Assembly (NCBI GenBank): GCA_951828385.1
Contig: OX639973.1
Span: 2,241,561 to 2,305,560, forward strand
Direction: 5' to 3'
DNA length: 64,000 nucleotides
Origin: an uncultured Poribacteria bacterium
Lineage (GTDB): Bacteria; Poribacteria; WGA-4E; WGA-3G
Shown: positions 7,575 through 49,279 of the stretch, in pieces
Layout of the letters: the number at the start of each line of letters is the position of its first letter
Numbering within the stretch: position 1 is the stretch's first letter
The notes under the pieces: model-generated
Databases searched by the model: none
Seen by the model: the letters and a program-made list of their open reading frames with translations, nothing else
What the model was told of the DNA's origin: nothing
Translations under genes and position numbers: made by a program

Positions 7575-7603
7575 TTGCTTTCTTAACAAAGTTATAGTAT
7601 AAT
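7575..7603 (+). promoter_or_regulatory. Candidate sigma70-type promoter for uvrA (TTGCTT-17 bp-TATAAT). A GTTA-N12-TAAC palindrome overlaps the -10.
   Basis: Read directly: ttgctt(7575-7580) tcttaacaaagttatag tataat(7598-7603), about 50 nt upstream of the uvrA SD AGGAGG. Lies in an AT-rich 440-bp divergent intergenic region. Confidence 0.4.
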
Positions 7604-7652
7604 TAGTAACAGAAAATTCTCTATTTTTTAACAACAAAATTAGGAGGCATGT

Positions 7653-25646: not shown

Positions 25647-27179
25647 CTACAAAGAATGGTAAGCTGCAATAATTGCCTCCACAAGGCTCTCTATTGTGGC
25701 TTTCTTTGCAATCACATCAACCTGTATACCCTGTTTGATCGCTGTTTTCTGTGTCTCTGGACCGATGACTGCGATTTGCACATCCGCCAATAAAGTCTCA
25801 GGGGTATGCCTGGGGAACATCTCCAAGAAATTGTTGACTGTGGAAGAACTGGTGAATGTGAGGAGGTCAATCCTGCCGTTCAAGAGATCCGTTTCAATTT
25901 CATCTCGCCCTTTATCGCTATCGCTTGCCACTTTGAGGGTATCGTAGAGCGGGATATCATCAACGTGCGCGCCTCTTTCGCGCAAACCGTCGGGGAGATC
26001 GGACATCGCGATTTTCGCACGTGGTAGAAGGATTTTCCGCGCGCTTACTTCGTCTATTTCAGCAGCAATGGCACTCCCGCGGGAGCGCGCTGGGACAAAG
26101 TCAGGCTGAATACCGATAGCGTTAAGTGCCTCAACCGTTTTCGGACCCACTGCACAGATTTTGGTGCCACCGAACGCTCGTACATCGCTCCCATTTTCTC
26201 GCAAACGTTTATAGAAAATCTCAACGGCGTTAACACTCGTAAAGATAACCCAATCGTATTTGTCGGGAGAAGGCAGGTCTACACGTTCAATAGGTTGAAT
26301 CTTTATAGTCGGAAACTGGATGACCTCTGCGCCGTTTGCCTCTAAGAGGTCTGCGAATTCACTTGCTTGTGCGCGGGCGCGTGTGACAAGGATGCGTTTT
26401 CCGAAAAGTGGTTTGGTGTCAAACCATCGGAGTTGCTGGCGTAGCCGATTCACTTCTCCGACAACGATAACAGCGGGACTTTCGAGTTGGACTGCCGTTA
26501 CTTTTGACACAATATCCGCAAGGGTCCCTTGGACGACTTGCTGTTGCGGTGTCGTGCCAACACGTACTAAACTAACAGGCGTTGCGGGCTGCCTACCGTG
26601 TGTTATCAATCGTTCCACAATCTCGCGGAGATGCGCGACTCCCATATAAACGACAAGCGTATCTACTGCAGTGGCGAGGTGTTCCCAATTGATGTTTGAA
26701 TCTGATCGCAGTGCGGCGGAATGTCCTGTCACAAACGCTACCGATGATGCGTAATCTCGGTGCGTGACGGGGATGCCTGCATAAGCGGATGCGGCAATCG
26801 CAGAAGTGATACCGGGGACGACCTCAAACGGAATGCCTGCCTCGGTGAGTGCCATCGCCTCTTCGCCGCCACGCCCAAAGATATAGGGATCTCCACCCTT
26901 GAGGCGAACGACAACTTTGCCTGCCTTGGCATGCTTAACAAGTAACTGATTAAGTTCGGCTTGGCGTGTGGCGCGCACCCTTGGATCGGGTGCTTTGATT
27001 TTTTCGGTGTGCGAAGGACAGTGTTCCAATAACGCATCGTTCAGTAATAGGTCATAGATAACGACATCGGCGCGCTGAAGACACTCCACCCCTTTAAGTG
27101 TGATAAGTTTTCTATCACCGGGTCCAGCACCTACGATGTAGACGCTACCTGTGGGTAGTTTGTTTAGAGACGCGTTCAT
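25647..27179 (-). CDS. Uroporphyrinogen-III C-methyltransferase (CobA/SUMT) fused to uroporphyrinogen-III synthase (HemD)
   Basis: 510 aa. N-terminal SUMT motifs (VYIVGAGPGDRKLITLKGVECLQRADVVIYD; VVRLKGGDPYIFGRGGEE). C-terminal ~250 aa HemD-like. Confidence 0.85.
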   Translation of the reverse strand: MNASLNKLPTGSVYIVGAGPGDRKLITLKGVECLQRADVVIYDLLLNDALLEHCPSHTEKIKAPDPRVRATRQAELNQLLVKHAKAGKVVVRLKGGDPYIFGRGGEEAMALTEAGIPFEVVPGITSAIAASAYAGIPVTHRDYASSVAFVTGHSAALRSDSNINWEHLATAVDTLVVYMGVAHLREIVERLITHGRQPATPVSLVRVGTTPQQQVVQGTLADIVSKVTAVQLESPAVIVVGEVNRLRQQLRWFDTKPLFGKRILVTRARAQASEFADLLEANGAEVIQFPTIKIQPIERVDLPSPDKYDWVIFTSVNAVEIFYKRLRENGSDVRAFGGTKICAVGPKTVEALNAIGIQPDFVPARSRGSAIAAEIDEVSARKILLPRAKIAMSDLPDGLRERGAHVDDIPLYDTLKVASDSDKGRDEIETDLLNGRIDLLTFTSSSTVNNFLEMFPRHTPETLLADVQIAVIGPETQKTAIKQGIQVDVIAKKATIESLVEAIIAAYHSL

Positions 27180-28102
27180 TCCAAGACCCCTTGTGTCGCC
27201 AACAATCCAGTTGCCCCCCCCTCCCGGAGTTTTTCGGCAACAACTTCGCCTAAGTGTTGGGCAGCGTTTGGTTCCCCCTTTGCGCTCTTCACAATACGCA
27301 AGGCACCTTCTGGATGACAGACGACACCGATAAGGGAAAGTTCGCCATTAACATGTTTGGCGTACGCGCCAATCGGTACTTGACATCCACCGCCGAGGCT
27401 TTCCAACACGGTCCTTTCAGCGGTAACTTCTGCCACCGTTTCCTGATGGTTCAGAGGTTGAAGTAGGGTTTCAAGCGCAGTATCGCCTTCGCGTGCTTCA
27501 ATCGCGAGCGCGCCTTGTCCAACGGCTGGTACCATCCGTTCTACATCAAAGAATTGTGTAATAACTTCCGGCTTGCGGAGACGGTTGATGCCGGCTGCAG
27601 CAAGGATAATTCCATCAAGGCCGGTTTCATGAAGTTTGCGCAACCGCGTATCTATATTACCTCGGATATCAACGACTTGTAAATCTGGACGCATATAGAG
27701 GATTTGCGCTTTTCGACGCGGACTTGTGGTGCCGATTGTTGCGCCATTCAGCAAGTCCTCTAAGGGTAGTCCTGAGGCAGTGATGAGTACATCTCGCGGA
27801 TCCTCCCGTGTCGGAATCGCGGCGATGCAAAGCCCTTCGGGAAGTTCTATTGCGAGATCTTTCAAACTATGCACAGCGAGATCAATATCTCCTGCTAAGA
27901 GTGCGTTTTCTATCTCTTTGGTAAAGGCACCTTTGCCGAGTCCAACTAATGAGCGGTCCTGAATGGTATCCCCAGTAGTTTTGATGATCTTGAGGTTGAC
28001 TTCGAGATCAGAAAAGAGGCGTTCCAACTGATCTTTGACGAATTGTGCTTGCCAAAGTGCGAGTTGGCTACCACGGGTGCCGATTACAAGCGAGTTGCGC
28101 AT
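27176..28102 (-). CDS. hemC: Hydroxymethylbilane synthase / porphobilinogen deaminase (HemC)
   Basis: Conserved N-terminus LVIGTRGSQLALWQA and dipyrromethane cofactor Cys region (GGGCQVPIG). Start moved to the ATG at 28100-28102 (SD AAGGAA). 4-nt overlap with the downstream cobA/hemD gene. Confidence 0.9.
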   Translation of the reverse strand: MRNSLVIGTRGSQLALWQAQFVKDQLERLFSDLEVNLKIIKTTGDTIQDRSLVGLGKGAFTKEIENALLAGDIDLAVHSLKDLAIELPEGLCIAAIPTREDPRDVLITASGLPLEDLLNGATIGTTSPRRKAQILYMRPDLQVVDIRGNIDTRLRKLHETGLDGIILAAAGINRLRKPEVITQFFDVERMVPAVGQGALAIEAREGDTALETLLQPLNHQETVAEVTAERTVLESLGGGCQVPIGAYAKHVNGELSLIGVVCHPEGALRIVKSAKGEPNAAQHLGEVVAEKLREGGATGLLATQGVLE

Positions 28103-28224
28103 CAAAATTCCTTTTTTTAATATCGGGATTCTGCTCGTTTTTTGCCCTGCTTCCCCGTAACGGGTGGCGGATCTTATCAAAACGGAGCTTCCGTGAAGTT
28201 ATGTTGCTCTTGACGGGATTCACC

Positions 28225-29526
28225 TTATACATCCGAATGATCATCGTTAACATCCAAGGCGAACAATTCCTGCAAGGCTTGGATGTACTGCCCGTGGTCG
28301 GCATCTCCGTCGTTGACGGCACAGCGTAGATTTTGCATGGGATGGTGGAGCAGTTTTTTGACAATCGCTTGCGTCATGGAAGCAACAGCCGCTTCCTGCT
28401 GATCCGAAAGTGTTGCTTTATAGAAACACGCTTGCAATTCAGTGTCAGCGATCTCTCGAAACTGCTGATGGAGTGCCTTAATAGTAGGATTGACCTGAAA
28501 GATTTGCAATTGGGCGTAGAACCGCTTCGCTTCTTCGGTGACAATCTGCTCTGCTCGGTTCGCTTCTTGCTGTCGATCCTTGAGGTTGGAGGCGACAACG
28601 GCTTCAAGGTCGTCAATATTGTAAAGGAAGGCGTGGTCAATCTTACTCACATCGGGGTCTATATCGCGGGGTACAGCGATGTCAATGAGAAACATATACC
28701 GGTGCCTGCGTTTCCGCATGATATTAGCGAGGGGCTGTCGTTTGATAAGATAATCGGGTGCATCGGTAGAACTAATAACAATGTCGGCATCAATAAGGAA
28801 ATCAAGGTCGCTATCATAAGCGATGGGTGTACCGTTAAACTTCTCTGCGACTTTGACAGCACGTTCATAAGTGCGATTTGCAACAATCACGTTAGAGACA
28901 CCATTTGAAACGAGATGCTTTGCGGTCAGTTCACTCATTTCACCTGCTCCGAGAATTGCAACAGTCTTGCCTTCAAGTGTATTGAAAATCTTTTTGGCGA
29001 GTTCAACGGCGGCGTAACTAATAGAAACGGCACCCGTGGCGATAGTCGTCTCGGAGCGGATCCGTTTACCAACACTGAAAGCCTTGGTGAAAAGACGGTT
29101 GAGAATTGCCCCCCCCCCACCGGCTTCCCGCGAGGTATCGTAAGCAGTCTTGACCTGTCCTAATATTTGGGATTCACCGACCACCATAGAATCAAGGCTC
29201 GTTGTCACTCTGAAAAGGTGTTGGATTGTCTCCAAGTTATGATGGAGATACGTCCATTTTTTGAGGGACCCTACGCCGATTCGGTGGTAGTGTGAGAGGA
29301 ATTCAACCAACATTTTGGCGGCAGCGTCAGCAGTTCGCACCGAATTCACAACAGCGTAGACTTCTACCCGGTTACAGGTAGAGAGAATGACCGCCTCGTG
29401 AATCTGATAAGACTCACGAAGCTGCTGGAGCGATTCAGTAAGTTGTGCTTCGGAAAACGCCAATTTTTCCCTAAATTCAATCGGGGCAACATGATGGCTG
29501 GTTCCGATGGAGACGATCTGGTTCAT
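28225..29526 (-). CDS. hemA: Glutamyl-tRNA reductase (HemA)
   Basis: 433 aa. Catalytic Cys region (LSTCNRVEVY). NADPH-binding (AILGAGEMSELTAKHL). Confidence 0.9.
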   Translation of the reverse strand: MNQIVSIGTSHHVAPIEFREKLAFSEAQLTESLQQLRESYQIHEAVILSTCNRVEVYAVVNSVRTADAAAKMLVEFLSHYHRIGVGSLKKWTYLHHNLETIQHLFRVTTSLDSMVVGESQILGQVKTAYDTSREAGGGGAILNRLFTKAFSVGKRIRSETTIATGAVSISYAAVELAKKIFNTLEGKTVAILGAGEMSELTAKHLVSNGVSNVIVANRTYERAVKVAEKFNGTPIAYDSDLDFLIDADIVISSTDAPDYLIKRQPLANIMRKRRHRYMFLIDIAVPRDIDPDVSKIDHAFLYNIDDLEAVVASNLKDRQQEANRAEQIVTEEAKRFYAQLQIFQVNPTIKALHQQFREIADTELQACFYKATLSDQQEAAVASMTQAIVKKLLHHPMQNLRCAVNDGDADHGQYIQALQELFALDVNDDHSDV

Positions 29527-29655
29527 TCCTTATAACCAAAAGATCTAAAAGCTGAAATGTTGTTGATACGTTCCGTAAATTATATCACATATCAGCGATT
29601 GTGTCAAATTTGGAAGTCGCGAAGTCGCGATTCCAAACGGCTCTACCCAAGAAAA

Positions 29656-30498
29656 TTAGCGATACGTATGCATGCTATCTAAAAAGAGATCAACGCCAAC
29701 GTAAGTGCAAAGGACAGCGACGAACCCGAGGATTGCGGCGTAGGCTGCGCGTCGTCCGTGCCAGCCCCATAACTGACGGAGACCGATCTGGACGACATAG
29801 ATAAACCATGTCATGAGGGTGGAGATTACCTTCGCATCAAGCCACCTCCACGGGACATCTCGGATATACTGGGTCCAGAGACTTCCGACAATGACACCCA
29901 TTGTGAGCAGAATCACACCGAGAATCGTACAACGATACCCAAGTTCATCAGAAACACCGAGAGAAGGGAGGAGGTTGTCAAAAAGCGTGTCCGTTTTTTG
30001 GCGGATTTTCCGCTCGGCTATCAAATACATCAACCCAAATCCAAACGCAGCGATGAACGCCGCATAGCCGAGAAAGATGAGGGAGGTGTGTGCCAAAAGC
30101 CAATAGTTTTGCAACGGTTCCGGGAGTGCAGCAGTGTGTGTCGCGAAACTATATGAGATAAGTATAGCAATAAACGCAACCGGCATCACAAAACTACCGA
30201 GTGTGCGGAGTTGTGTCAGCCGCACGATGATGAGGTAGATCAGTGTGATTGCCCATGCAAAGAAAGCGGTGGAATCGGTCCAGTGCGTCATCGGAAAATG
30301 CCCTTGTGTGAGCCACCATAGCGTAATAAAGAGACTCAGAAAAGCAAAACCGATACTGGTTCCCCAAAAAGCGATTCGCTCAATCGTTGGACGGATGATA
30401 ACCGCTTCGCTCCGGTTACTGATAGCCAACGAGAGTGTCTGAAAAATGCTTGCCGCTAAGTATATTAAAAGAGTAACAAGAAACAGAAAATTTATCAT
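29656..30498 (-). CDS. Cytochrome c assembly protein CcsA/HemX-like (W-rich motif membrane protein)
   Basis: About 280 aa, 8 TM segments, WGW motif region (LRQLWGWHGRRAAY). Location immediately upstream of hemA is typical for hemX/ccsA-like genes. Start moved to the ATG at 30498. Confidence 0.6.
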   Translation of the reverse strand: MINFLFLVTLLIYLAASIFQTLSLAISNRSEAVIIRPTIERIAFWGTSIGFAFLSLFITLWWLTQGHFPMTHWTDSTAFFAWAITLIYLIIVRLTQLRTLGSFVMPVAFIAILISYSFATHTAALPEPLQNYWLLAHTSLIFLGYAAFIAAFGFGLMYLIAERKIRQKTDTLFDNLLPSLGVSDELGYRCTILGVILLTMGVIVGSLWTQYIRDVPWRWLDAKVISTLMTWFIYVVQIGLRQLWGWHGRRAAYAAILGFVAVLCTYVGVDLFLDSMHTYR

Positions 30499-30562
30499 AC
30501 GCTGTGCTTTTCGAGAGCCTAAGGACACATAGCAGTCAGATATGCCTCTCCGTTATGTGTGT

Positions 30563-31510
30563 TCATTCGCTTTCATTTTCGCTATTGGCGAGGTGCGCCC
30601 GGAGGCGTTCTAACTCGGCTTCTATTGCCAGTCGTCTTTCGGCTTCTTCTCTGGCGCGACTTTCCGCGGCTTGCCGCTGTTCCGCTTCTTCTCTGGCGCG
30701 ACTTTCCGCGGCTTGCCGCTGTTCCGCTTCCTCTCTGGCGCGACTTTCCGCGGCTTGCCGCTGTTCCGCTTCCTCTCTGACGCGTCTTTCTGCCGCTTGC
30801 CGCTGTTCCGCTTCTCCTGCCAGCAGTTCTTCTGCTGCCACTCGTAGGTGATGTTCCTCCAGGGAAGTTGTAATAGCGGTGCCATCGGGAAGATACGGAC
30901 GTAAAAGCCGCAGCTCCCACGCCTCATGAAGCTCCCACCGAAAATAAAGGTTTAACGACGCACTGAACAAACCATCATCAGCCTCTTCTTCAATCTCAAC
31001 GATGTCGCCCAATGCATCCCGCCGCCACCCCCGAAATTCTATAGGGCGATTCATGTTGGGTTGATGAATGAAATACTCCGCAACCCCCATATCCCGCAGA
31101 TACACTTCAATTTTTTCATGCCGGTCCTCAGACGCTGTTGTATCTGAAAGGAACTCAAAAACTGCTGTAGGGACGGCGCCTTCTGCCCAGGTATAAAAAC
31201 TCCTTCGTAACGGAAGTTTCGCGGCACCAAGGGCGACAAACACATCGGGAGCCACGACCTTTCTGATATCGCCTTCGCGGTAATAGATAAAGTTGTCCAT
31301 ACCGACATGGATATACGGGTGTGCCTGAAAATATCGTAAGAACTGGTCAAATAAACTATGCATCTGCATTCCGTGAAATTCGCCTGCTGGCATGGGTTCA
31401 TCGTCCTCATAAGGGTAGCCTTCAATGTAAGTGGTCGGTTTTCCACTCGCTTTTGGAAAGACAGGCATGTATTTTCTTTGCTTGAGTTCAAAATCGTTTA
31501 GCGTATTCAT
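30563..31510 (-). CDS. Uma2-family (DUF820) putative endonuclease with a C-terminal coiled-coil tandem-repeat tail
   Basis: N-terminal ~230 aa Uma2-like (PVFPKASGKPTTYIEGYPYEDDEPMPAGEFHGMQM...VAPDVFVALGA...VFEFLSDTTASEDRHEKIEVY). C-terminus has 4 copies of the 14-aa unit AEQRQAAESRAREE. Confidence 0.7.
   Translation of the reverse strand: MNTLNDFELKQRKYMPVFPKASGKPTTYIEGYPYEDDEPMPAGEFHGMQMHSLFDQFLRYFQAHPYIHVGMDNFIYYREGDIRKVVAPDVFVALGAAKLPLRRSFYTWAEGAVPTAVFEFLSDTTASEDRHEKIEVYLRDMGVAEYFIHQPNMNRPIEFRGWRRDALGDIVEIEEEADDGLFSASLNLYFRWELHEAWELRLLRPYLPDGTAITTSLEEHHLRVAAEELLAGEAEQRQAAERRVREEAEQRQAAESRAREEAEQRQAAESRAREEAEQRQAAESRAREEAERRLAIEAELERLRAHLANSENESE
30643..30810. repeat. Near-perfect 42-bp tandem repeat x4 (coding; encodes the EAEQRQAAESRARE repeats of the Uma2 protein)
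   Basis: Unit cttcttctctggcgcgactttccgcggcttgccgctgttccg at 30643, 30685, 30727, 30769, with 0-4 substitutions per copy. Spawns artefact ORFs on both strands. Confidence 0.9.
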
Positions 31511-31630
31511 GATTTTCTTCCTTTGCCTATCGAGACAGGAATGTCACTCATCTACGTGAGATGGTTAAGGCAGTACTCAACCGTTTTGAAAATCTTAAAA
31601 AAAGCAGACTATTTTCGCTTTCGGGCAATT

Positions 31631-32818
31631 TTAACACCCCTTGTCCGCTTTATCAAGCAGTTTGGTGGTAAAGGTATCGGCGCGTTCCAAATTGCCGTGC
31701 CGAACCCAGTTGAAAAGACATTCAGCAGAACACTCAGGGTTTGTGAGGCCGAGACAACATGTTGTAGGAGGGATTTGCAACCCCGATCCCGCATCTTCAA
31801 CGGTGTTGATAAGCGTTTCAAAGAAGTCGGCGCGTTTCTTAGGCGTTGGAAAAGCCTTGAGAATCTCGGAACGACGCGCCCCAAGGAACTCAATAAATGC
31901 ACCGTAGCCGTTGTTTTCAAACTGGTTGGCGAGTTGCTTATGGAGCCGTTTCGCTTTGTCACTGTCTTTGCCGTTTTGAGTCGATACACTAATTATTAGA
32001 TTGTCGTCTACCACAAGATCAGGGGTGAAGTGGGTGCCAGCACTCGGTTGATCAAGATATTCTCGAATGAATCCGGTTTCACTTTCACAAGATGCGTCTA
32101 CCGCTGAAGATTTGTCTGCGATTACAAGGAATGCATCTTCAAGATGATGCGGTTTCACTTCGTCCGGTGCCGGACGGACAACAGACGCACCACATCGGTT
32201 TAGCAAGGAGATGCGGCGTTCAATCTTCTGCGTTTTCTGCTTATATAAGACGATACACGTGCGATTTTCCAATAGTAGGTAGACAGGATAGGGTAACGCT
32301 TGCCCTCCTTTTTCACTGGCAATCGGCACCGGTACTCCATCTTCATACCCGAGCGTATATAGAGAAGTCGCGTTCAGTATTCTCTCAAAATGTTCACGGA
32401 TGCGGCGGCTCGTCGCGGGACTTTTACCACTCGTGGAGATGCTGAGCATCAAGTCGCCATCCGTTACAACAGAAGCGGCGGCGAAGGTGCATTGTGGGAT
32501 AACATCAACGACATTAACTAAACGAATTTTGTTTTTCTCGTGCGCTTCTGTGAAGACAGCAGTGTTAATATCCGTGAAATCGGTGGCAGCACAAACGAGG
32601 AAATAGCCGTGCGTGTCACCTATTTTCAGTTGCCGTTTGTGCCAGCGAATTGTGCCGATTTGTGCAAGGTAGGTCAGCAATTCGGTTGCATCAGGACTCA
32701 CCACGGTAACATCGCCACCACTGACGAGCATAGCGACGACTTTCCGCTCAGCAACGGTTCCGCCCCCTACGACAAGGCATTTCCGATCTTGAAGGTTTAC
32801 GTGCACAGGATAAAACAT
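31631..32818 (-). CDS. Precorrin-2 dehydrogenase / sirohydrochlorin ferrochelatase-like (SirC/Met8p-type). Has a tandemly duplicated Rossmann-type domain and a Cys-rich C-terminal tail.
   Basis: N-terminus VHVNLQDRKCLVVGGGTVAERKV...LMLSISTSGKSPATSRRIREHFE matches the CysG N-terminal/SirC pattern. A second degenerate copy follows (YLLLENRTCIVLYKQKT...LIISVSTQNGKDSDKAKRLHKQL). The C-terminus carries TTCCLGLTNPECSAEC. Confidence 0.6.
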   Translation of the reverse strand: MFYPVHVNLQDRKCLVVGGGTVAERKVVAMLVSGGDVTVVSPDATELLTYLAQIGTIRWHKRQLKIGDTHGYFLVCAATDFTDINTAVFTEAHEKNKIRLVNVVDVIPQCTFAAASVVTDGDLMLSISTSGKSPATSRRIREHFERILNATSLYTLGYEDGVPVPIASEKGGQALPYPVYLLLENRTCIVLYKQKTQKIERRISLLNRCGASVVRPAPDEVKPHHLEDAFLVIADKSSAVDASCESETGFIREYLDQPSAGTHFTPDLVVDDNLIISVSTQNGKDSDKAKRLHKQLANQFENNGYGAFIEFLGARRSEILKAFPTPKKRADFFETLINTVEDAGSGLQIPPTTCCLGLTNPECSAECLFNWVRHGNLERADTFTTKLLDKADKGC

Positions 32819-32913
32819 TTTATAATAGTTCTCAGTCGTCAGTCGTCAGTTATCAGTTAAGAGGTGGTCTGATTAATCAAAAATATCTTTAACCGACAGT
32901 TGATAGTCATTCC

Positions 32914-33897
32914 TCATGACTCGCGTGAAACGACGTAGTCTGCGAGTTGTTCGAGTGCGAGGCGGGCAGGTGTCTCTGGTAAGTCTGTCAATGCTGCTTT
33001 AGCACGGTCGGCATAGTCTTGGGCAACCTTCAAACAGTGAGTCTCGACACCATACCGTTGGAACAGTGCCTCAACAAAGGCGATCGCCTCTGCTTCATTC
33101 GTATTCGGATTCAGGACTTTCTCAAGTGTCTGCTTTTCATCATCATTGCAAACGGATCTGGCATAAATGATTGGAAAAGTGAGTTTTCCTTCACGGAGGT
33201 CCCCGAATGTATTTTTTCCTAATTTATCAGAATCTTCCGTGAAATCAAGCACATCATCGACAATTTGGAAGGCGGTTCCAATTTGCTGTCCGTAGGTTGT
33301 GAGTGCCTCAACCTGCTGTGTGTCTGTTGGGTTTCCGAGGTGTGCGCCGAGGGTGCAGGACGCAGCGATCAACTTACCGGTCTTGAAACTGATGATTTTG
33401 AGGTACTCGGCTTCGGAGATGTCAAAATCACCGCTTTTATATGCATGGATAACTTCACCTTCACACATCGCCTGCGTGGTGTCGGCGAGGATCGCCATCG
33501 CGGGATCGTCGGCACGACGGGAGACGAGCATAGAGAGGACACGCGCATGGAGATAATCTCCGACGAGGACAGCGACTTTATTGCCCCATTTCGTCTGTAA
33601 GGTCTCACGTCCACGCCGGATCGCGGCTTCATCAAGCACATCGTCATGAACAAGTGATGCAACATGGATGAGTTCAACGACAGCGGCAAGCGTGTGTGCA
33701 TCGTTTCCTTCATATCCGTAGACCTTGGCAGAAAGCACAACGAGGATAGGACGGAGCCGTTTGCCCCCGCCTTCTACAACATGTTGGACTGCCATATCGA
33801 CGAAACTATACTCGCTGGCGGTGTGTTCCGTGAGTTTCACCTCAATAGCACTGAGATCATCGGCAATTAATTCAACAATTTGATCAAAACTGGACAT
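32914..33897 (-). CDS. Polyprenyl diphosphate synthase (trans-IPPS; IspB/HepT-like)
   Basis: 327 aa with both Asp-rich motifs (LVHDDVLDEAAIRRG and FQIVDDVLDF). Confidence 0.85.
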   Translation of the reverse strand: MSSFDQIVELIADDLSAIEVKLTEHTASEYSFVDMAVQHVVEGGGKRLRPILVVLSAKVYGYEGNDAHTLAAVVELIHVASLVHDDVLDEAAIRRGRETLQTKWGNKVAVLVGDYLHARVLSMLVSRRADDPAMAILADTTQAMCEGEVIHAYKSGDFDISEAEYLKIISFKTGKLIAASCTLGAHLGNPTDTQQVEALTTYGQQIGTAFQIVDDVLDFTEDSDKLGKNTFGDLREGKLTFPIIYARSVCNDDEKQTLEKVLNPNTNEAEAIAFVEALFQRYGVETHCLKVAQDYADRAKAALTDLPETPARLALEQLADYVVSRES

Positions 33898-34058
33898 AAT
33901 GTAATGGTTGTCAGTTGTCAGTCATCAGTTGTCAGTTCGGTTTTTCTGCGAAAAACCTTTCAGTTATCAGTTAAAGAGGTGTACTGTGGCAGTAACATAA
34001 TTTGTAATTGCCACAAGAAGTTAACTGAAAACTGACAACTGATGACTGACAACTATTA
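33898..34058. repeat. Imperfect ~30-bp inverted repeat built from AACTGAC-type heptads, flanking an ~80-bp centre (hemL-ispB intergenic)
   Basis: Left arm ggttgtcagttgtcagtcatcagttgtcagtt (33906-33937). Right arm aactgaaaactgacaactgatgactgacaac (34023-34053). Related heptad runs at 5116-5160 and 32825-32860. Confidence 0.7.
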
Positions 34059-35342
34059 AAAGAGGTTCCCCAGTACCTCCGTTGCGGCTTGAACGGTTTT
34101 ATTGATATCGTCTTCAGAATGGACCAAAGAGACGAACCCCGCCTCGAACTGGGAGGGTGCGACATAGACCCCGCGTTGGACGAGTCCCCAGAAGTAGTGT
34201 TCAAAGCGTTCGGTATCCGCTGTGCGTGCGCCATCAGCATCCGTAACGGTCTCCGGTGTGAAGTAGAGCATCAGCATCGAACCGACGCGGCTATGCCAAG
34301 CATCAATATCGTGTTTTTGGGTTGCTTCAGCGAGTCCGTCCGCAAGGGCTGCCGCACGAGTCTCGAGTTGTTCATAAGTGCCCGGTTCAGCAAGCCTTTT
34401 GAGCGTTGTTATACCCGCGGTAACGGCTAACGGATTACCGGACAACGTACCCGCCTGATAGACATCGCCTTCTGGAGCGACACACTGCATGATGTCCCGT
34501 TTGCCGCCGTACGCCCCAACCGGTAAACCGCCACCGATAATCTTCCCTAAACAGGTCATATCAGGTGTGACGTTATAGTAAGTTTGGGCACCGCCATAAG
34601 CCACCCGAAAGCCGGTGATAACCTCGTCGAAGATGAGTACAATACCGTGTTCTTCGGTAATCTCACGGAGTTGATTGAGGTATCCGTCATGCGGTGGGAT
34701 GATCCCCATATTGCCCATAATCGGTTCGAGAATGAGACAGGCGATTTCATCTGGATTGGCTGCTACTGCTTCGCGGACAGCATCGGGATTGTTAAAGGGG
34801 ACGGTGAGCGTATTGCGTGCGAAATCCTCCGGCACGCCGCCGCTATCAGACAGTCCAAACGTTGCGACCCCAGAGCCGGCTTTTGCCAACAGATAGTCCA
34901 CATGACCGTGATAGCATCCGTCAATTTTGAGGATCTTATCGCGACCGGTATACCCGCGTGCGACGCGGATCGCGCTCATTGTGGCTTCGGTCCCGGAATT
35001 GACGAGACGTACCTTTTCGATTGAAGGCACAGCGTTGACAATAATCTCAGCGAGTTCCGTTTCTAATGTCGTTGGCGCGCCAAAACTGGTGCCGTTCAAC
35101 GCTGCTGCACCGATAGCCTCCGCAATGCTCGGATGCGCATGCCCTAAAACTAAGGGCCCCCATGAAGCAACATAGTCAACATACGCGTTTCCATCGATAT
35201 CGTATATTTTTGAACCTTCGCCACGTGCGATAAAACGGGGATGCCCGCCGACTTTGCTGAAATTTCGGACAGGACTGTTGACCCCACCGGGGATAAATTG
35301 TTGTGATTTTTGCCATGCGGCTAAGGATTTACTGCTCTCCAA
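34056..35342 (-). CDS. hemL: Glutamate-1-semialdehyde 2,1-aminomutase (HemL)
   Basis: 428 aa class-III aminotransferase with PLP-Lys region ([12 protein letters not shown]) and HemL-like N-terminus ([11 protein letters not shown]). Confidence 0.9.
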
Positions 35343-35444: not shown

Positions 35445-36422
35445 CTAATCGTTGAGCCATTCGACGACGGACTTTGCGAAGTACGTTAAAATCATATCCG
35501 CGCCGGCGCGCTTGATGCTTGTTAAAAGTTCCAATGCGACCCGCTCTTCGTCAATCCAACCGTTCTGTGCTGCTGCTTTAACCATAGCGTATTCTCCGCT
35601 GACGTTATAGGCAGCAACAGGTACCTGAAATTCTGTCTTGACGCGATGGATGACATCCAGATACGAGAGTGCGGGTTTCACCATAAGAATGTCCGCGCCT
35701 TCCTGAATATCCAATGCGACTTCCCGTAGTGCTTCCTCTGCATTCGCTGGGTCCATCTGATAGGAGCGGCGGTCCCCAAATTGTGGTGCGGATTCCGCGG
35801 CTTCGCGAAAGGGACCGTAAAATGCCGAAGCATATTTGGCGGCGTATGCCATAATGGGTATATTCTCATACCCGTTTTCGTCCAATGCTTCTCGAATTGC
35901 GCCGACGCGACCGTCCATCATATCTGAGGGGGCAATGACATCGGCACCAGCACGAGCGTGTGAGAGGCTCTCTTTAACGAGGAGTGCCAGTGTCGGGTCG
36001 TTTTGTACCTCGTTATCTTCAATGACACCACAATGCCCATGATCGGTGTATTCACAGAGACAGACATCTGTCATCACAAGCAGGTCCGGCACGGCATCTT
36101 TGATTGCTCGGACCGCGAGTTGAATGATACCGTCATCGGCATAAGCCTCAGTGCCGAGTGGGTCTTTCGCTGCGGGTATGCCGAACAAAATTGTGCCGGG
36201 GATTCCGAGGGCAGCGAGTTCTTTCGCGGCGGTGACGAGCCTATCAACCGAGAATTGGTAGCAACCGGGCATCGCAGAAATTTCGGTTGCGGTATTATGT
36301 CCATGAACGACGAACATCGGATAAATGAGGTCATTGACAGAGAGTGCCGTTTCGCGGACGAGTCGGCGTAGGTTTTCATTTGCACGCATCCGTCTCGGGC
36401 GATAGACAGGGAAGGTGCTCAT
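35445..36422 (-). CDS. hemB: Porphobilinogen synthase (HemB / ALAD)
   Basis: 325 aa. Active-site Lys regions and metal-binding Cys cluster ([14 protein letters not shown]). Its ATG overlaps the stop of the upstream secreted-protein gene (ATGA). Confidence 0.9.
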
Positions 36423-37339
36423 TCATCCTCCGAAGGTGAGCCTTTGATTTCATAGTTCGTTAGTTCGAGGGTACTCTCTCCATCAGGTTCCAATCCGAGC
36501 TGCTCCTTTGCTTCGTCAGACTCCGGATGCTCATGACTGAATTTGACAATACCGACGTTAGGTGCCAACCAGATTGTTGTTAGGGTCGTCCCGTTTCGTT
36601 CTTCCGGTTCTTGCTGCGGCGCACCAGGCACAGATATATTTACTTCAACCGTTTCGTTCGTCTGGTATTCAATGATCAAGCAGTCTTCAAACGTGCCAGC
36701 AGATGTTTCAACGGTTTCTGTGCCGGTAACTGTGCCTGTCTCAATGATGGTGCTATGGGTTTTGATAACCGGTGCACCGCCCGGTATTTCCATAGGTGCC
36801 CCTTGGATATCCATAGTCAGGGTGAGCGTAACATTTAACTCCAACGCTGTCCATTCTTCATTGTAGGCAATAGGTGTAGGTAGCAGATAGAAATAATCTG
36901 CGGATACCACCTCAATATCGTAATTCAAGTCAAGGGCGACCCCTTCAGGGGCATCCCCGAGCATTTGTTGACGTAGCATTGGCAGTATTTCTTCCATCTC
37001 TTGCGCTGTGCGTGCTTTAAGCCCGTTCTCAATTTCAGTGCCGACAAAGAACGCGACCCAGTCGTCCCCGACCTGATAAAAATACGGATGAATGTAATGC
37101 TCAAAGTCCGCCCAATCCTCCAAGGCGGGATCATAACTGAAGGCGCGATAGGTTTCGCCATCAATATCTTCAGGTGCTATGGCGTAGCGCGTTAATTCGT
37201 TCCCGTCTTGGTCTTCATAAGTCCAGTAGCTGCCAACTGCATCTGGAAAATAGTAGTTTGCCCATTCATTTCCGACGGACATCGCGCTGAAACCGAAAAT
37301 GAGTAAAAGGACAAAAACAGGCTGCATTTTTTTTAACAT
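36419..37339 (-). CDS. Secreted hypothetical protein, paralog 3 of a tandem triplet
   Basis: Signal peptide, then [42 protein letters not shown]... This is near-identical at its N-terminus to the 37407-38306 gene. SD AAAGGAA. Start at the ATG at 37339. Confidence 0.6.
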
Positions 37340-37406
37340 AAGAGATTCCTTTTGCGCCTCGCGGTAAACTTTCAAGTTCCCGAAAGCGGTGCTTCAGAAA
37401 GCGGAA

Positions 37407-38306
37407 TTAATCACTTTCACTGCTCTCTGATTCAGTGGATTTGATTTCATAGTTCGTTAGTTCAATGGTTTTAACGATGTCGGTACTTTCGGATTCCTGT
37501 AGCATTTTAACAATACCGACATTCGGAGCGAGCCAGAGCGTTGTCAACGCCCCCTTATATACATCCTCAAACATAGTTTTCGCTTCTGGTAGATCCGGTT
37601 CAGTCCTTATTGAGGCATCCATTTTATACTCAATTATTAGGCAATCTTCAAACGTACCGGCAGCGGTTTCGACCGTCTCTGTACCCGTTACATTCCCAGT
37701 TTCAACAAGCGTTAAGAACATTGTGATCATCTGACTTGTTGGTGGAAAACCCTCCACGTTGCTTGTGATGTCAATCTGCAGATCCATTTCCACATTAACG
37801 CGCGAAGCCTCCCACTCCTCATTGAACGTCGCAGGCGTTGGCAAAACATAGAAATAGTCTTGTGCCTCTATATCAAGTTCGTATGTTACATTAAGGTCAA
37901 CAGTCACCCCGGGTGGCAGTTGATTATTCAACTGTTGTTTCATCACTACCATAGCCTCGTTCCAGTGCTTCTCTGTGACCGCCCGTGTCGTATTCTCGAT
38001 ATCATCACCGACAAAGAACGCCACCCAGTCGTCACTGACTTGGTAAAAATAGGGATGAAAATAATACTGGTATTTTGTCCAGTCCTCCAAGACGGGTTCA
38101 TAACTGAAGGCACTATAGGTTTCGCCATCAATATCTTCGGGTGCTATGGCGTAGCGCGTTAATTCCTCACCGTCTTGGTCTTCATAAGTCCAGTAACTGT
38201 CGAGTGCATCTGGAAAATAGTAATTTGCCCACTCATTCCCCATCAATGTCGTGCTAAAACCGAAGATGAGTAAGAGAACGAAAACGGACCGCATTTTTTT
38301 TGACAT
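37407..38306 (-). CDS. Secreted hypothetical protein, paralog 2
   Basis: 299 aa, signal peptide, same family. SD AAAGGAA. Confidence 0.6.
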   Translation of the reverse strand: MSKKMRSVFVLLLIFGFSTTLMGNEWANYYFPDALDSYWTYEDQDGEELTRYAIAPEDIDGETYSAFSYEPVLEDWTKYQYYFHPYFYQVSDDWVAFFVGDDIENTTRAVTEKHWNEAMVVMKQQLNNQLPPGVTVDLNVTYELDIEAQDYFYVLPTPATFNEEWEASRVNVEMDLQIDITSNVEGFPPTSQMITMFLTLVETGNVTGTETVETAAGTFEDCLIIEYKMDASIRTEPDLPEAKTMFEDVYKGALTTLWLAPNVGIVKMLQESESTDIVKTIELTNYEIKSTESESSESD

Positions 38307-38384
38307 GAAGAGTTCCTTTCGCTATTTTTGCTAACTTTACAGAAAATGTCTACATATTTCGGGATTTCAGCATATAAAGCGGGA

Positions 38385-39323
38385 TTAATCGCTCTCACTG
38401 CTTCCGGACGCATCGGACGTGATTTGGTATTTCGTTAATTCAAAAGTCTTAACCGTGGCTGAGGATTGAAACTCAGGAGAAGGTATAGTTTTCAGAAATA
38501 TATCCTCTGTTTTCTGATGAAACTTCACAATCCCGACATTCGGAGCAAGCCACAACGTCGTAACAGATTCGCCGGGTGGATCATTTGCTGAGTGCTGTTC
38601 GACAGGTGACACTTCCATTGTCGTTGCTGTGCGGTATTCAATCTTTAAACAGTCCTCAAAGGTACCCGCCTGCGTTTCAACGGTTTCTGTGCTGAGGATG
38701 TTTCCGGTTTCGGCAATGTTAAAGTCAAGTATAATTTTTGGCATCTCATCTGTCGCGGGGAAATCAGCAGGTGCCCCTATGATTTCATACTGCATCGAGA
38801 CTTTCGCTTTTATCTGCGTTGTATCCCACTTTTCGTTTGGAGTTGTGGCAGTTGGAACCAGAACAAAATGGTCCTCTGCCTTAACCTCCACATCATAATT
38901 GATATCAAAGGAGATATTAGGTGCGTCGGGTGGCGGGTTGTCCTCTATAGATTTCTTCGCCATCTCGGTGAAAGCTTCCATCTCTTTGATAAGGCGTGCC
39001 TTCATCGCTTTTTCTATCTCGTCGCCGATGAGGCATGTAATACTCTCATCATCAACACTGTACAGGGACGGCAGAAAGTGATAAGCGTAATTTGCCCAAT
39101 CTTCTATGTCAGGTTCGTAAATGAAAATGTTATACGTTTCGCCAGCAATCTCTTCGCCTTCATCAACAGTGCGTGTCAATTCATTTCCATCTTGGTCTTC
39201 ATATACCCAATAGCTGCCAAACGTCCCCGGAAAATATGTTTTCGCCGTTTCATTTCCCATCAATGTCGTACTGCAACTGAAGACGAATAGGAAAACGAAA
39301 ACGGCTCGGATTTTTTTTAACAT
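38385..39323 (-). CDS. Secreted hypothetical protein, paralog 1 (more divergent)
   Basis: Signal peptide [58 protein letters not shown]. Start at the ATG at 39323. Confidence 0.6.
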   Translation of the reverse strand: MLKKIRAVFVFLFVFSCSTTLMGNETAKTYFPGTFGSYWVYEDQDGNELTRTVDEGEEIAGETYNIFIYEPDIEDWANYAYHFLPSLYSVDDESITCLIGDEIEKAMKARLIKEMEAFTEMAKKSIEDNPPPDAPNISFDINYDVEVKAEDHFVLVPTATTPNEKWDTTQIKAKVSMQYEIIGAPADFPATDEMPKIILDFNIAETGNILSTETVETQAGTFEDCLKIEYRTATTMEVSPVEQHSANDPPGESVTTLWLAPNVGIVKFHQKTEDIFLKTIPSPEFQSSATVKTFELTKYQITSDASGSSESD

Positions 39324-39479
39324 GCGACACCCCTGTTGCATTTTGTGCTTCCTCAATTAAGTATACAGAATCCGAGCGCAAACGGCAAGGAAAATTCAAT
39401 TGTCAGCCATCAGCAAAGAATGTCTTACAAAGGCGTAGAAGTGCTTCGCTGGTTTTTTCGCCTGCGATCTTTTGAGCGT

Positions 39480-41090: not shown

Positions 41091-41297
41091 GCGTTTCCTC
41101 CTGATGGCTGTTATGGACATATTGCCTTTACAAGGCTAAAGACCGATGGCGATTTTTTGTTATTCTATCAAGCATCAGGTTTTTTGTCAAAGAAAATCGG
41201 GATAAGCGTTGTGATTTGGAGATCAATTCCATCGAAATTTTCTGTTGACGGACACCCTTTTTGATGGTAAACTCAATCAACAATAGAGGAGAATTTT

Positions 41298-44412: not shown

Positions 44413-46041
44413 TTACTTCCGAATTAACATCTTACGCGTCGCAGTAAACTGCCCAGCTTTGAGCGTATAGAAATAGACTCCACTTGCGACTGGCTCTCCG
44501 TGAGCATTCTTACCATCCCAATAGGCAGCACGGTCTCTACTCTGATAGACACCTGCAGGCATTTCGCCTAACGGCAAACTCCGAACTAAAGCACCGTTCG
44601 CAGTATGAATGAAGACAGCGACTTCCGCTGGTTGCGCCAACTGATAAGGTATCCAAGTCTCTGGATTGAAGGGGTTGGGGTAGTTTGCCAAGAGCACTGT
44701 TTTTGGGGGTGTCGGTCGTGCCATCCGTGTCCCAACTGCCAAAAAGCGTTCTAAGATCGCGATCGTCTGTGGATCCGCACCGACATCCTGTGCCTCTTGG
44801 ATCCACTGCTGGACATCTTCTGCAGTGAAGGAGAAATCGTGTAGATGCTGTGCAAGAATAGGAGCCGCTTGGGAATCTACTGGTGCTTGGGCATCCACTG
44901 CCTTAGCAACAACAATGAGGTCTTCAATATTAACGACCCCATCTTTGTTGACATCCGCGCGTGGGTTTGCGCCATCTACGACAGTTTTTCCGTAGTTCTC
45001 TCCCACCTCAATAATGTCAAGATATGTGACACTACCGTCCCCTGTTATATCAACCGCTGCGAGTGGCTCCCACAAGCGGATTGTGTCGTCATCACTGCCA
45101 CTCACAAGAAGTGACCCATCAGAGTTCCAAGCAATTGTATTAACACTAGCGGTATGCCCTTTCAGAGTGGCTTTGTGTGCGCCAGTGGTGGAGTCCCATA
45201 AGCGGATGGTATCATCGCTACTGCCACTGGCAAGGATTGCCTCGGTTGGATGGAATGCCAACGTATGGACGTTACCGGTATGCCCTTCCAAGACGTGCAG
45301 CGGGGAATCCGTGTCCGTTGGGTCCCAAATACGGATGGTGTCATCGTTGCTTGCACTCGCGAGCAGCGTTCCATCAGGACTCCACGCAACCGATCTAACA
45401 GTATGCGTATGTCCGCGAAGTGTAGCAATGTTGGCACCGTTGTCTGGGTTCCACAAACGGACGGTACGGTCTCTACTTGCACTGGCGAGCAGCGTTCCAT
45501 CAGGACTCCACGCAACCGACTCGACATCATTCCGATGCCCCCGCAGTGTCCGAACGGGTCGACTTTTCCATGCGTCCCATGTTAAATCCCAGATACGGAT
45601 TGTGTCGTCATTGCTCCCGCTGGCAAGGATGGAGCTCCCCGGTTTAAAGGACAGCGTATTGACAGTGTTTGTATGTCCTGTGAGGTAACCTCTTATGTCT
45701 CCGTCATCTGTGTAAGACATCCCAATATAAGGGCGGAAAAAGAGTCCGCCGGCATAAACGACAAAACGCGAGTCATGCGATGAGATCGCAATATCAGAGA
45801 TTAAGAAGAGATCCACTTCGGTATGCCAAGGTTGTGCACCCGTGTCAAGATCCCAAAAGCGAAGGTCGCTATCGCCTCCCACACTGATAAGTGTGCTATC
45901 GTCTTTGAATGCCACTGCAGAGACATGAATTTTATGCCCGCTGAGCGTCCGAGTATGGAAGTACTCTTCGGCAGCGGCAAAAGGTAAAGTAACTGTGAAA
46001 ATGGACAGTAGCGTTAAAATCAAAAGGCTTATTTTTTTCAT
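44413..46041 (-). CDS. Secreted WD40 beta-propeller protein with a dockerin-like repeat and a T9SS-type (Por_Secre_tail/FlgD-Ig-like) C-terminal domain
   Basis: Signal peptide, about 7 WD40 repeats (LRGHTHTVRSVAWSPDGTLLASASNDDTIRIWD etc.), dockerin-like DVNKDGVVNIEDLIVVAKAV, C-terminal NYPNPFNPETWIPYQL...GVYFYTLKAG. Confidence 0.8.
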   Translation of the reverse strand: MKKISLLILTLLSIFTVTLPFAAAEEYFHTRTLSGHKIHVSAVAFKDDSTLISVGGDSDLRFWDLDTGAQPWHTEVDLFLISDIAISSHDSRFVVYAGGLFFRPYIGMSYTDDGDIRGYLTGHTNTVNTLSFKPGSSILASGSNDDTIRIWDLTWDAWKSRPVRTLRGHRNDVESVAWSPDGTLLASASRDRTVRLWNPDNGANIATLRGHTHTVRSVAWSPDGTLLASASNDDTIRIWDPTDTDSPLHVLEGHTGNVHTLAFHPTEAILASGSSDDTIRLWDSTTGAHKATLKGHTASVNTIAWNSDGSLLVSGSDDDTIRLWEPLAAVDITGDGSVTYLDIIEVGENYGKTVVDGANPRADVNKDGVVNIEDLIVVAKAVDAQAPVDSQAAPILAQHLHDFSFTAEDVQQWIQEAQDVGADPQTIAILERFLAVGTRMARPTPPKTVLLANYPNPFNPETWIPYQLAQPAEVAVFIHTANGALVRSLPLGEMPAGVYQSRDRAAYWDGKNAHGEPVASGVYFYTLKAGQFTATRKMLIRK

Positions 46042-46120
46042 CTGAATGCATCCTTTCCCGAAAACACTTTCGGGTGTAGATAATTTATGTTGCCCTAAAT
46101 TGCTCAAACTTTCAGTCGTT

Positions 46121-46220: not shown

Positions 46221-49200
46221 TCAATCGTTTTTCTTCTCAAGCGCGGCATAAAACATCCCGCTCCGTTCGGTAACAATATAAAGCCTGTTACGCTTGACAG
46301 CAACAGAAATGACGCGGCTTGGTACGTTTGGCGAGATCTGTTCCCATCTGCCCCGAGTATCCAATTGATAGGCACCCGTATCGCCAGCACCATAAACGGT
46401 TATATCATCTACGGCAACTCGGGCTATGACGGTGTGTGTACCACCTTTATCGGTGATTGCGCGCCAATTTTCACCGTCTGCCGATGTTAAGACCCCCGCG
46501 TCTGTGGCGACATAAACCGTTGAACCCGCAAAAACAATATCGTTGAAATGTTCAAATCGAAGTGGCAGTGTTGCGGTCAGGTCTTTCCATGTGTTCCCGC
46601 TATCAAACGATCGGAACAGATGTCCATCCCGTTTGCCAACGTAGACGGTTTCACCTGAAACAGCCAGAACGAAATGATCGGGCCCCTCATGGTTAGTAGG
46701 TGCGTCAATGTCTACCAGCCCAGTGTCGAACCATTCAGGTTCGCCGCGTCTCCACCGCAGGAGCCGCCCCTGATATTCCACATAGAACGTATCACCGCTG
46801 ACTGCAAACGCGCTGTGAGATGCTATGGACTCGCGGGTTGTGTCTATCGATTTATCGGCTTTCTCAGGATCGTTAGGGGCAGCGTCGGGTATATTTCTTT
46901 CCGACATCTCTTGTGATGCAGTTTTTGGAGGCTCAATAGAAAGATTTTCACCCAAAACAGGGGCTTCTGGCATAAGCACCAGCACACCGCCATTCTTAGA
47001 AAGATGGAAGATGCGCTGCTCGGTACCTTCTATGTCTACGGAAAGTGCGGTGCCGATGCAGTAGAGTTTATCGTCAGAAATTGCCAGCTGCGAAGAACGG
47101 AGTAGAAGACCGACAGCCAATACCGATCCTAATTCTGGTGTTAATTGATCAGGGCTGAATCGCAGGTCTCTCCATGACATCCCACCGTCGGTGGATTTCG
47201 CGATATTTGTACCGGTATAGGCGTAGAGTGCGTTTTTGAATGCGACTAAGTTAGATATCTGGGTTCCGACCATGCCTGTCATAAACGGATGCCACGATTC
47301 GCCAGCATCGGTTGAACGGATAAGTCCAAAAGGACTGGCTTTGAACAGGATATTTTCGTTCATGCCAATAGCGGGGAATACACTCAGCATAAACGAATTC
47401 ATCATTGAAAGCGGATCCAATTTTTTGTATCCGTGGTTTGTCCATGTTTCGCCGCCGTCAGTCGATCGGCATTGGAAGCCGGTGTATCCCAATGCCCAAA
47501 GCGTTTTTCCAGCAGTAAGGACCTTAATGCCCGGGGATAGCATCGTCAAGACTGGCTCGCTTGTAGGTGTGATTTCAGTCCACGAATCGCCGAAATCGGT
47601 TGACCGGAAAATTTCCCACATAGACTGCCCGGCAGACACCTCTTCGCGTATTTCATCCTCTTTAAAGGCTCCCAAGTCGGGACCTGTCCCGACATAGAGG
47701 TTGCTTTCAGAAACCGCTAAGGAGTGGATAGCCTTAGTGGTCGTTAGCGGCAATTTTTCCCACATATCCATTGCCGAATTATGCCCTGGATTGATACGGT
47801 AGAGTCCCTGATTCGTTCCGATAAACATTGTGTTTTCAAGAGTAGCCAAAGCAAAGATTTTTCTATCCGTCACTTCACCACCGAGGGGTGTCCACTGCTG
47901 TCCCCTATCTTCGGATCGGAAAACACCTTTATCTCTCAGCAGGAGGTATAAGGCTTCATCCGTTACGGCCAATGCGACAGCAATACCTTCGGGGCGGGTG
48001 CCAATCGGCTCCCACATCTCGCCGCTATCGGTTGAGATAAGTACTTTATCATCAGAAATAAGATAAAGGGTTCCGTTTTGCTCCGCCATCGGTATCATGG
48101 GGGGTGCCTCCGTAGGTGTCTCCAAAGTTGTTGTAGGGCTGAGGAACGTCCATGCTCGTGTGTCTGGCGTTAATCTATAGACACCGAGACGCGAAGCGGC
48201 GTAGATATCGCCATTTGAACTTACCAGTAAGCCGCCTACGGGGCCGCTCGCTGGTACGCTCGCGGGTCTCCACTGCTGTGGTGTTGTCAGTGGTTCCTTT
48301 TCTATCTGCGCGACAGCAGGGACAACAGGCTCTGAAACTTGCGGCCCGGCACCGCTGCCCCGACCCGTGGTATCAGAACGTCCGGCTTGGTTCCGTAGGT
48401 CCGGTTCCGCCTGCGTATCAATAACAATGGGTGTGTCAATAATTTCAACAGTGGTTTCCGATTGGGCATTCAAGTTGTAAGGTCTCTGAAAGCGACTCAG
48501 GTATTGGGACCCGACACCGATCATCAGCATTATAAGAATGGTAGCGGTGCCAAAAGCGATCCAGGGTAGCAACGGTTTTCCAACCGAAGGTGGTGCTGGT
48601 TTGATGTCGGCAACTTGCTGCATAATACGCTCAATGAAATTGGCAGGCATCTGGACGTTTCCAAGCGTTTCGCTAATCAGGTGCTCTTCGGCTTGTAAAC
48701 GCTCCCGTGCCCGGCGAAGCCGACTTTTAATGGTGTTCACCGATACCCCTAAGAAATTGCCAATCTCCTTCGCCGTCATTTCACCGAGGTAGTAGAGCGT
48801 TACCACCGTCCGTTCACTCTCTGGCAATGTTTCCAGAAGCTCTTTGACGATTTCGTGGCGATGTTCCATCGCTTCCGCCTCCCGTTGCTCCGATACATAA
48901 CGTCTATAAGAAAATGCCTCTACGTCCGCTACAGATGTGTCATCCAGGGATTGCATCGCGGGTTTGTTGCTTTGATGCCACCTCTTGCAAAGATTACTCG
49001 CAATCACATAAAGCCATCCAGCAAACTGGCTGGGATTCCTCAGCCTTGCAAGGTTTTTGTATGCTTGGAGGAAGGCATCTTGGGCAATCTCTTCAGCGAT
49101 GTGAAAATCGCCAATCTTCCGCCACGCCAGCGCGTGAACGCTTTTTTGGTACTTTTGGACCAAAGCACTAAATGCCGCTTCATCACCCGACAAAATTCTG

Positions 49201-49229: not shown

Positions 49230-49279
49230 CAGCATTCTCCATGTCTCACGCATAAACGTGATTGTGTTTACATTCAAAT

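Follow-up and report, generated by a model that had tools for sequence, protein, structure and literature searches.

The stretch of DNA analysed here (the window) comprises 64,000 nucleotides from an uncultured Poribacteria bacterium (GenBank assembly GCA_951828385.1, contig OX639973.1, positions 2,241,561 to 2,305,560 of the forward strand), and its central element is an array of three tandem paralogous genes lying immediately upstream of hemB, the gene for porphobilinogen synthase. An initial inspection of the letters (the sequence-only reading) had placed three tandem paralogs on the minus strand between positions 36419 and 39356, and three tandem open reading frames (ORFs) that can be aligned end to end in pairwise protein alignments are indeed found there. 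With starts taken from orthologue alignments, the genes correspond to par1 (38385-39323, minus strand; 312 residues, ATG at 39323), a divergent copy designated type B, par2 (37407-38306, minus strand; 299 residues, ATG at 38306) and par3 (36419-37339, minus strand; 306 residues, ATG at 37339), the last being the copy next to hemB. All three products are predicted to be exported DUF3108-like proteins. The lengths of 318, 299 and 323 residues given originally need correction in two cases, since 318 and 323 are those of the longest TTG-started ORFs and the conserved ATG codons give 306 and 312. Position 39341 offers another ATG, with GAGGAAG as its Shine-Dalgarno sequence, which was dropped as a candidate start of par1 because orthologues lack it. 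The AAAGGAA Shine-Dalgarno sequence that had been described as identical in all three genes is shared by par2 and par3, and par1 has AGGGG instead (AGGAG in its orthologues).

The proteins encoded by par2 and par3 are about 56-58% identical and par1 shares 42-46% with either of them, which agrees with the divergence that had been attributed to it; the conserved N-terminal block quoted earlier is exact for par3 and nearly exact for par2. The description of par2 and par3 as very similar holds for codons 24-100 only (37040-37270 in par3 and 38010-38240 in par2), where they show 83% amino acid and 86% nucleotide identity and a number of synonymous substitutions per site (dS) of 0.55, the remainder being 37-62% identical with dS saturated. 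This mosaic pattern suggests gene conversion or a later partial duplication between the adjacent copies.

The junction of the array with hemB (35445-36422, minus strand; Pfam ALAD, E 7e-157; NCBIfam PRK09283, 536 bits) shows the arrangement that had been proposed for it, the stop codon of par3 (TGA) overlapping the start codon of hemB (ATG) in the tetranucleotide ATGA at 36419-36422 (minus strand). The Shine-Dalgarno sequence of hemB, GGAGG, is found at 36427-36431 (minus strand), within the last par3 codons (S-E-D-E). The two genes display the geometry of a coupled pair, that is, same strand, overlapping stop and start, and a downstream Shine-Dalgarno sequence inside the upstream ORF. Because the latter sequence lies in the final codons of the paralog and the ATG overlaps its stop, ribosomes that reach the end of the paralog would make the hemB start accessible or use it in their turn. 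Pairs of genes with ATGA overlaps such as trpE-trpD are translationally coupled, with the same four-nucleotide overlap and the downstream Shine-Dalgarno sequence in the upstream gene. Coupled pairs mostly encode subunits or enzymes of one pathway, whereas in this case the upstream gene codes for a predicted exported protein without an assigned function and the downstream one for a cytoplasmic enzyme. Overlaps of four bases are commonplace in operons, and the window has others, such as that between hemC and a cobA-hemD fusion at 27176-27179.

The junction was also compared in 68 loci of relatives in which both hemB and the copy upstream of it were found. ATGA is present in 52/68 and a one-nucleotide overlap (TAATG or TGATG) in 9/68, so that an overlap of either type occurs in 61/68. 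At these 61 junctions the hemB Shine-Dalgarno sequence is GGAGG in 41 cases and a four-letter core in 10, the other 10 having no core; in these last 10, termination followed by reinitiation would be the obvious route to the hemB start. In a lineage with four to seven copies, the hemB-proximal ones are par1-like and the par2/par3-like copy is distal, and the ATGA junction is still kept. The maintenance of the junction despite this replacement of paralog type suggests selection on the junction itself, and its persistence through changes in copy number and paralog type shows the arrangement to be of importance, at least to the expression of hemB. The large gap preceding hemB in one locus (L009) is an assembly gap of 37 Ns within the proximal copy. 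In another (L017), positions 6900-8342 hold the remnants of a decayed family copy, with fragments including WVYEDENGDELTRYAVEPGEVDGETY, broken by stops and frame changes.

A scan of one genome per species retrieved 77 loci, all from Poribacteria, and 72 of them present on one strand a lipoprotein gene, an oxidoreductase gene, one to at least seven family copies, hemB, hemL and a polyprenyl synthase gene. The linkage, whose absence from relatives would have spoken against the sequence-only reading, is therefore kept in 72/77 Poribacteria loci. Copy number was determined with hidden Markov models in loci L001-L085 plus the window, giving 45 loci with one copy, 18 with two, 11 with three, eight with four and four with five to seven. 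In 54 loci the copy next to hemB is of the par3 type, and in 31 of these it is also the sole copy. Even in a divergent lineage of 34% GC content, whose hemB is 80% identical (L079), two copies, the four-nucleotide overlap and the entire downstream gene order are retained. More distant subfamilies, of about 25-40% identity and located in other contexts, occur in tandem arrays of four to five copies as well (L085, 1-5616; L087, 4368-7464), which indicates that tandem amplification is a general habit of the family. A lipoprotein-type relative (P0173) is encoded in a metagenome-assembled genome of Poribacteria. Another member (P0156, locus L080) is found amid many small ORFs without Pfam matches on a 52.7-kb contig whose name, ctg101384_32x_c, ends in '_c'; this contig may be a mobile element or a phage.

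Upstream of par1, a promoter scan located a putative sigma70-like promoter element, CTTGCCG-N17-TATACT (39360-39389, minus strand). In alignments of six close and 15 diverse Poribacteria loci, the invariant positions are the TTG of the -35 element and the TAnAnT of the -10 element, with the 17-nucleotide spacer and the flanks being variable and one locus carrying a 400-nucleotide insertion upstream of the element. In 47 of 70 loci the strict motif is present a single time between the oxidoreductase gene and hemB, most of the others having recognisable variants, and it was never found before internal copies or before hemB in these 70 loci; in the 64-kb window it occurs a single time. A scan of this strand detected no terminator-like sites in the intergenic spacers. 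The spacer between hemB and hemL (glutamate-1-semialdehyde 2,1-aminomutase; 34056-35342, minus strand; NCBIfam TIGR00713, 625 bits) measures 26-339 nucleotides in relatives; its conservation is limited to the Shine-Dalgarno sequence and the TTG start, and the aligned relatives show no conserved promoter in it. Since the conserved promoter element precedes no copy but the first, the array and hemB, and probably hemL too, look like one operon; on the simplest reading, a single transcript would start at about 39350 and extend across the array as far as hemB and hemL. Co-transcription of the paralogs with cytoplasmic heme-biosynthesis enzymes, which had been envisaged earlier, appears likely in view of the linkage (72/77), the overlap (61/68) and the promoter footprint before the first copy only. 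The whole window was scanned for tRNAs and with Rfam (at gathering thresholds) and gave no matches, and therefore no riboswitch or RNA element explains the locus. The best promoter-like match of the region is another element, TTGACA-17-TAGAAT with a TG (11/12), at 41162-41190 (minus strand), ahead of the genes for the small lipoprotein and the oxidoreductase, which would form a separate upstream transcription unit.

As for the identity of the proteins, Pfam DUF3108_like (PF21347, gathering cutoff of 27 bits) matches par1 with 33.2 bits, par2 with 28.9 bits and par3 with 26.2 bits, just under the cutoff; the match is near threshold and covers only a C-terminal block of about 60 residues. A homology search returned 932 relatives, each named one belonging to Candidatus Poribacteria, and all 120 homologues listed carry a precomputed PF21347 match. 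When 1.84 billion representatives were searched exhaustively with a family profile, only 332 proteins reached E<=1e-3 and 44 of them E<=1e-30, numbers indicating that the full-length family is small. The profile of 46 members matches the structures 3fzx and 4fvs through the motifs TETVxTxAGxFxC..Y and WxAPNxGIV. In addition, the AlphaFold model is confident, with a predicted local distance difference test score (pLDDT) of 83, and Foldseek aligns it with E 1e-6 to 3fzx, an exported protein of YmcC-like fold, so that the paralogs present the YmcC-like beta-barrel fold seen in 3FZX and 4FVS. They constitute a divergent branch of the DUF3108-like (YmcC-fold) superfamily that is apparently found mostly in Poribacteria. 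The NCBIfam scan assigned no family to any of the three, the viral structure library yielded nothing significant (best E 0.03), and PADLOC and PHROGs returned no matches, which gives no tie to phage defence or phage proteins.

The closest known systems are the members of DUF3108_like (PF21347) and DUF3108 (PF11306) with solved structures, BF2203 of Bacteroides fragilis (3FZX) and BDI_3050 of Parabacteroides distasonis (4FVS), both of which share the C-terminal motifs with the paralogs and are, like them (as predicted here), exported proteins or lipoproteins without an assigned function. The paralogs differ in having about 90 additional residues, among them a helix of 30 (residues 100-129 of the model), in carrying Sec rather than lipoprotein leaders (as judged from their N-termini), in forming tandem arrays and fusions, and in being linked to hemB in a conserved operon, a link that was not found described in the papers searched. 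The remote fold relatives bind lipids. LolA, LolB, LprG and RseB/MucB, which are lipid-binding open barrels, show no sequence-level match to the paralogs and score within the general range of barrel similarity.

Each paralog has an N-terminus with a basic n-region (KK, R) followed by a hydrophobic core of 13-15 residues, and the invariant residues of 46 aligned members start only at N24-E25. The tripartite signal-peptide pattern in all three is consistent with the signal peptides assigned earlier, and these features argue for Sec-dependent export of the proteins. Fusion ORFs with two to four domains, up to 1139 residues and one predicted signal peptide, are found in relatives (L076, 8899-12318; L059, 8883-11564; L050, 8889-10736). 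In the L076 ORF of 1139 residues, four family domains follow one N-terminal hydrophobic segment only, the internal repeats beginning at profile position 21 and being joined by acidic, Pro-rich linkers; the single segment of this four-domain fusion supports a leader that is separable from the domain. Several distant family members carry instead lipoprotein-type leaders ending in Cys. The mature proteins of the window are very acidic (isoelectric point about 4.1, 55-57 Asp+Glu), contain one to two Cys and have an acidic tail (SESSESD/PSEDE) at their C-termini. This composition bears on the idea that the paralogs are integral outer-membrane beta-barrels, which is how DUF3108 proteins have been described. 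Barrels inserted by the beta-barrel assembly machinery (BAM) typically end in a C-terminal aromatic residue, the place of which is taken here by the acidic tail. With the high acidity of the mature chain, the 30-residue helix of the model, the concatenation of domains by soluble linkers, and best structural matches that are soluble crystal structures (one of an exported protein and one of a lipoprotein), a location within the outer membrane is highly improbable in spite of that description.

Compared with close relatives, the ratio of nonsynonymous to synonymous substitution rates (dN/dS) of the paralogs is 0.10-0.21 (par1 0.13-0.19; par3 0.11-0.21), and that of hemB, hemL, polyprenyl synthase and the oxidoreductase is 0.03-0.08 with the same relatives. 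The paralogs are under purifying selection, yet they evolve 2-4 times faster than the flanking enzymes. These ratios, together with the 932 homologues and the confident AlphaFold model (pLDDT 83), mark them as genuine genes and not chance ORFs. Fast evolution could also be expected from secreted or surface-located modules that interact with the sponge host or its matrix, that is, symbiosis factors that would diversify by tandem duplication, gene conversion and fusion, with the hemB site doing no more than offering steady transcription at housekeeping level. Poribacteria are dominant members of marine-sponge microbial communities (PMC3909097), and it fits with such a role that all named matches and all 77 loci belong to this phylum, that copy number varies, that multi-domain fusions with acidic, Pro-rich linkers have arisen, that par2 and par3 are mosaics suggestive of gene conversion, and that the mature proteins are so acidic. 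On the other hand, an overall dN/dS of 0.1-0.2 reveals no gene-level positive selection, Pfam detects no resemblance to known families of adhesins or eukaryote-like repeats, and the most conserved residues are hallmarks of the fold rather than a variable surface. A function in symbiosis, which overlaps with the reading preferred here and departs from it only in the ligand proposed, is considered possible but rather unlikely in this specific form.

The position of the array at the head of heme-biosynthesis genes raises the question of whether its products handle tetrapyrroles. The sequence-only reading had suggested heme- or porphyrin-binding periplasmic proteins as one option, and a developed form of it would have the paralogs bind, chaperone or sense a tetrapyrrole (heme, porphyrin or precursor) in the periplasm, in functional connection with the hem cluster, with coupling setting a fixed ratio to HemB. 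The conservation of hemB linkage and overlap in nearly all Poribacteria examined, including the divergent low-GC lineage, is what this proposal would anticipate; moreover, the array heads a tetrapyrrole cluster of roughly 14 kb that contains a HemX/CcsA-like membrane protein, the barrel fold class binds hydrophobic ligands, and the Cys of the FEDCL motif is invariant in the 46 aligned members. The last point loses weight, since this Cys is missing in several distant members and belongs, like the other invariant motifs, to the general hallmarks of DUF3108-like proteins, being shared with Bacteroides BF2203. Furthermore, the CXXCH heme-attachment motif is absent from all three proteins, and neither a His nor a Met is invariant in the alignment of 46 members. 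No heme-binding family of Pfam or NCBIfam matches the paralogs, those of the HasA, HmuY, NEAT and ChaN types being absent, and none of the top fold matches in the PDB is a heme-binding or hemophore fold, the ligands of the remote fold relatives being lipids.

Genomic context outside the conserved locus speaks against a tetrapyrrole role as well. Five Poribacteria genomes carry solo copies at a second site (L061, L065, L067, L068 and L071), which have no hem neighbours, the gene following the copy in L068 encoding an extracytoplasmic function (ECF) sigma factor/beta-propeller fusion. Of seven more distant members that were looked up, only P0152 (L079) adjoins hemB, no hem genes being seen near P0173, P0156, P0162, P0148, P0188 and P0153. 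A further member, P0146 (L087), belongs to a truncated array with no hem gene in sight, on a contig that stops short of the downstream neighbour. A copy number ranging from one to at least seven would also be unusual for a stoichiometric partner of a pathway. Taken together, these data make a tetrapyrrole-related role unlikely, and the earlier option of heme or porphyrin binding is disfavoured; the other option offered at the time, an unrelated expanding family, fits better with the range of copy numbers and with evolution 2-4 times faster than that of the flanking enzymes. In its most pointed version, in which the hemB-proximal copies would be periplasmic tetrapyrrole-binding or -sensing proteins produced in a one-to-one ratio with HemB through translational coupling, the proposal strikes us as decidedly doubtful. 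If true, it would give the DUF3108-like/YmcC-fold superfamily its first function and reveal a new link from envelope to cytoplasm, serving heme control or trafficking, in a phylum of uncultivated sponge symbionts.

The explanation that we favour, with a probability of about one half, is that the paralogs are exported envelope barrels without an assigned ligand that share an operon with hemB and belong to a fast-evolving, lineage-specific family. According to this model, the proteins would be Sec-exported, very acidic, soluble beta-barrels of a family that amplifies, fuses and diverges in tandem, most likely serving as a periplasmic or cell-surface binding module for a hydrophobic or amphipathic ligand. 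The array would form the promoter-proximal part of the operon, with transcription starting at the single conserved sigma70-like promoter that precedes the first copy; hemB and probably hemL would be the distal genes, and translation of hemB would be coupled to that of the last copy. The connection with heme synthesis would then most likely consist of shared expression, locked in by dependence on coupling, and probably not of shared biochemistry.

Some observations weigh against this interpretation. The genomes under comparison are rather closely related (hemB 80-98% identical), and part of the synteny may therefore reflect simple inheritance. In arrays of at least seven copies, hemB would lie more than 7 kb from the footprinted promoter, which makes unrecognised internal promoters possible. 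In L017, the decayed copy sits between the last intact copy and an intact hemB, which is left without an overlapping upstream ORF, so coupling would not be indispensable everywhere. Finally, the linkage to hemB persists while the family diverges to 26-42% identity, as would also be expected under a tetrapyrrole-related role.

The wider neighbourhood of the array includes, upstream, a gene for a GFO/IDH/MocA oxidoreductase and one for a small lipoprotein. Downstream of hemB and hemL, the rest of the tetrapyrrole genes identified by Pfam occupy 25647-33897 (minus strand), a context that does not imply one transcript, in the order polyprenyl synthase, SirC/CysG-N-like, an inserted ORF, HemX/CcsA-like membrane protein, hemA, hemC and the cobA-hemD fusion. 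As these hem genes follow on the same strand, the array heads a tetrapyrrole cluster of roughly 14 kb, the layout of which is that of a reshuffled Bacillus-type hemAXCDBL with a polyprenyl synthase gene in the middle. Genes for envelope proteins that are not enzymes are known from other hem operons, namely B. subtilis hemAXCDBL (HemX) and E. coli hemCDXY (HemX and HemY). The present cluster resembles them in having such genes embedded, and a HemX/CcsA-like gene also lies beside hemA here. HemX and HemY are, however, membrane proteins of other families (Pfam Cytochrom_C_asm and TPR), whereas the paralogs are predicted to be soluble exported barrels, are multi-copy and are located upstream of hemB. 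The inserted ORF (30563-31510, minus strand), between the SirC-like and HemX-like genes, encodes 315 residues without a Pfam match, with C-terminal repeats of the unit EEAEQRQAAESRAR; it looks inserted into the hem cluster because it is missing at the same position in L079.

Further away, the window encodes at 46221-49277 (minus strand) an ECF-type sigma factor (regions 2 and 4) fused to BNR/sortilin-like beta-propeller repeats, a combination found also in L068 (7005-9917), and at 44413-46107 (minus strand) a 564-residue WD40-repeat protein. A 303-residue ORF at 49685-50596, upstream of the sigma-factor fusion gene, was compared with the paralogs as a candidate fourth copy and is not one. Eukaryote-like repeat proteins have been reported for Poribacteria genomes (PMC3909097).

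A search of the literature on DUF3108 and on heme in Poribacteria retrieved no functional study of the family or of the operon, and for the DUF3108-like/YmcC-fold proteins solved structures were found with no assigned function. The near-universal linkage to hemB in Poribacteria, the footprinted promoter, and the amplification and fusion behaviour of the family are new. In practical terms, the corresponding hypothetical proteins can now be labelled exported DUF3108-like proteins, their export being a prediction. A branch of this superfamily that is fixed at the head of a hemB-hemL operon, with a conserved promoter and a stop/start overlap, offers a testable handle on these proteins. Even if the link consists of shared expression only, an essential housekeeping gene of Poribacteria appears to depend for its expression on the gene of a fast-evolving exported protein whose copy number varies from genome to genome.

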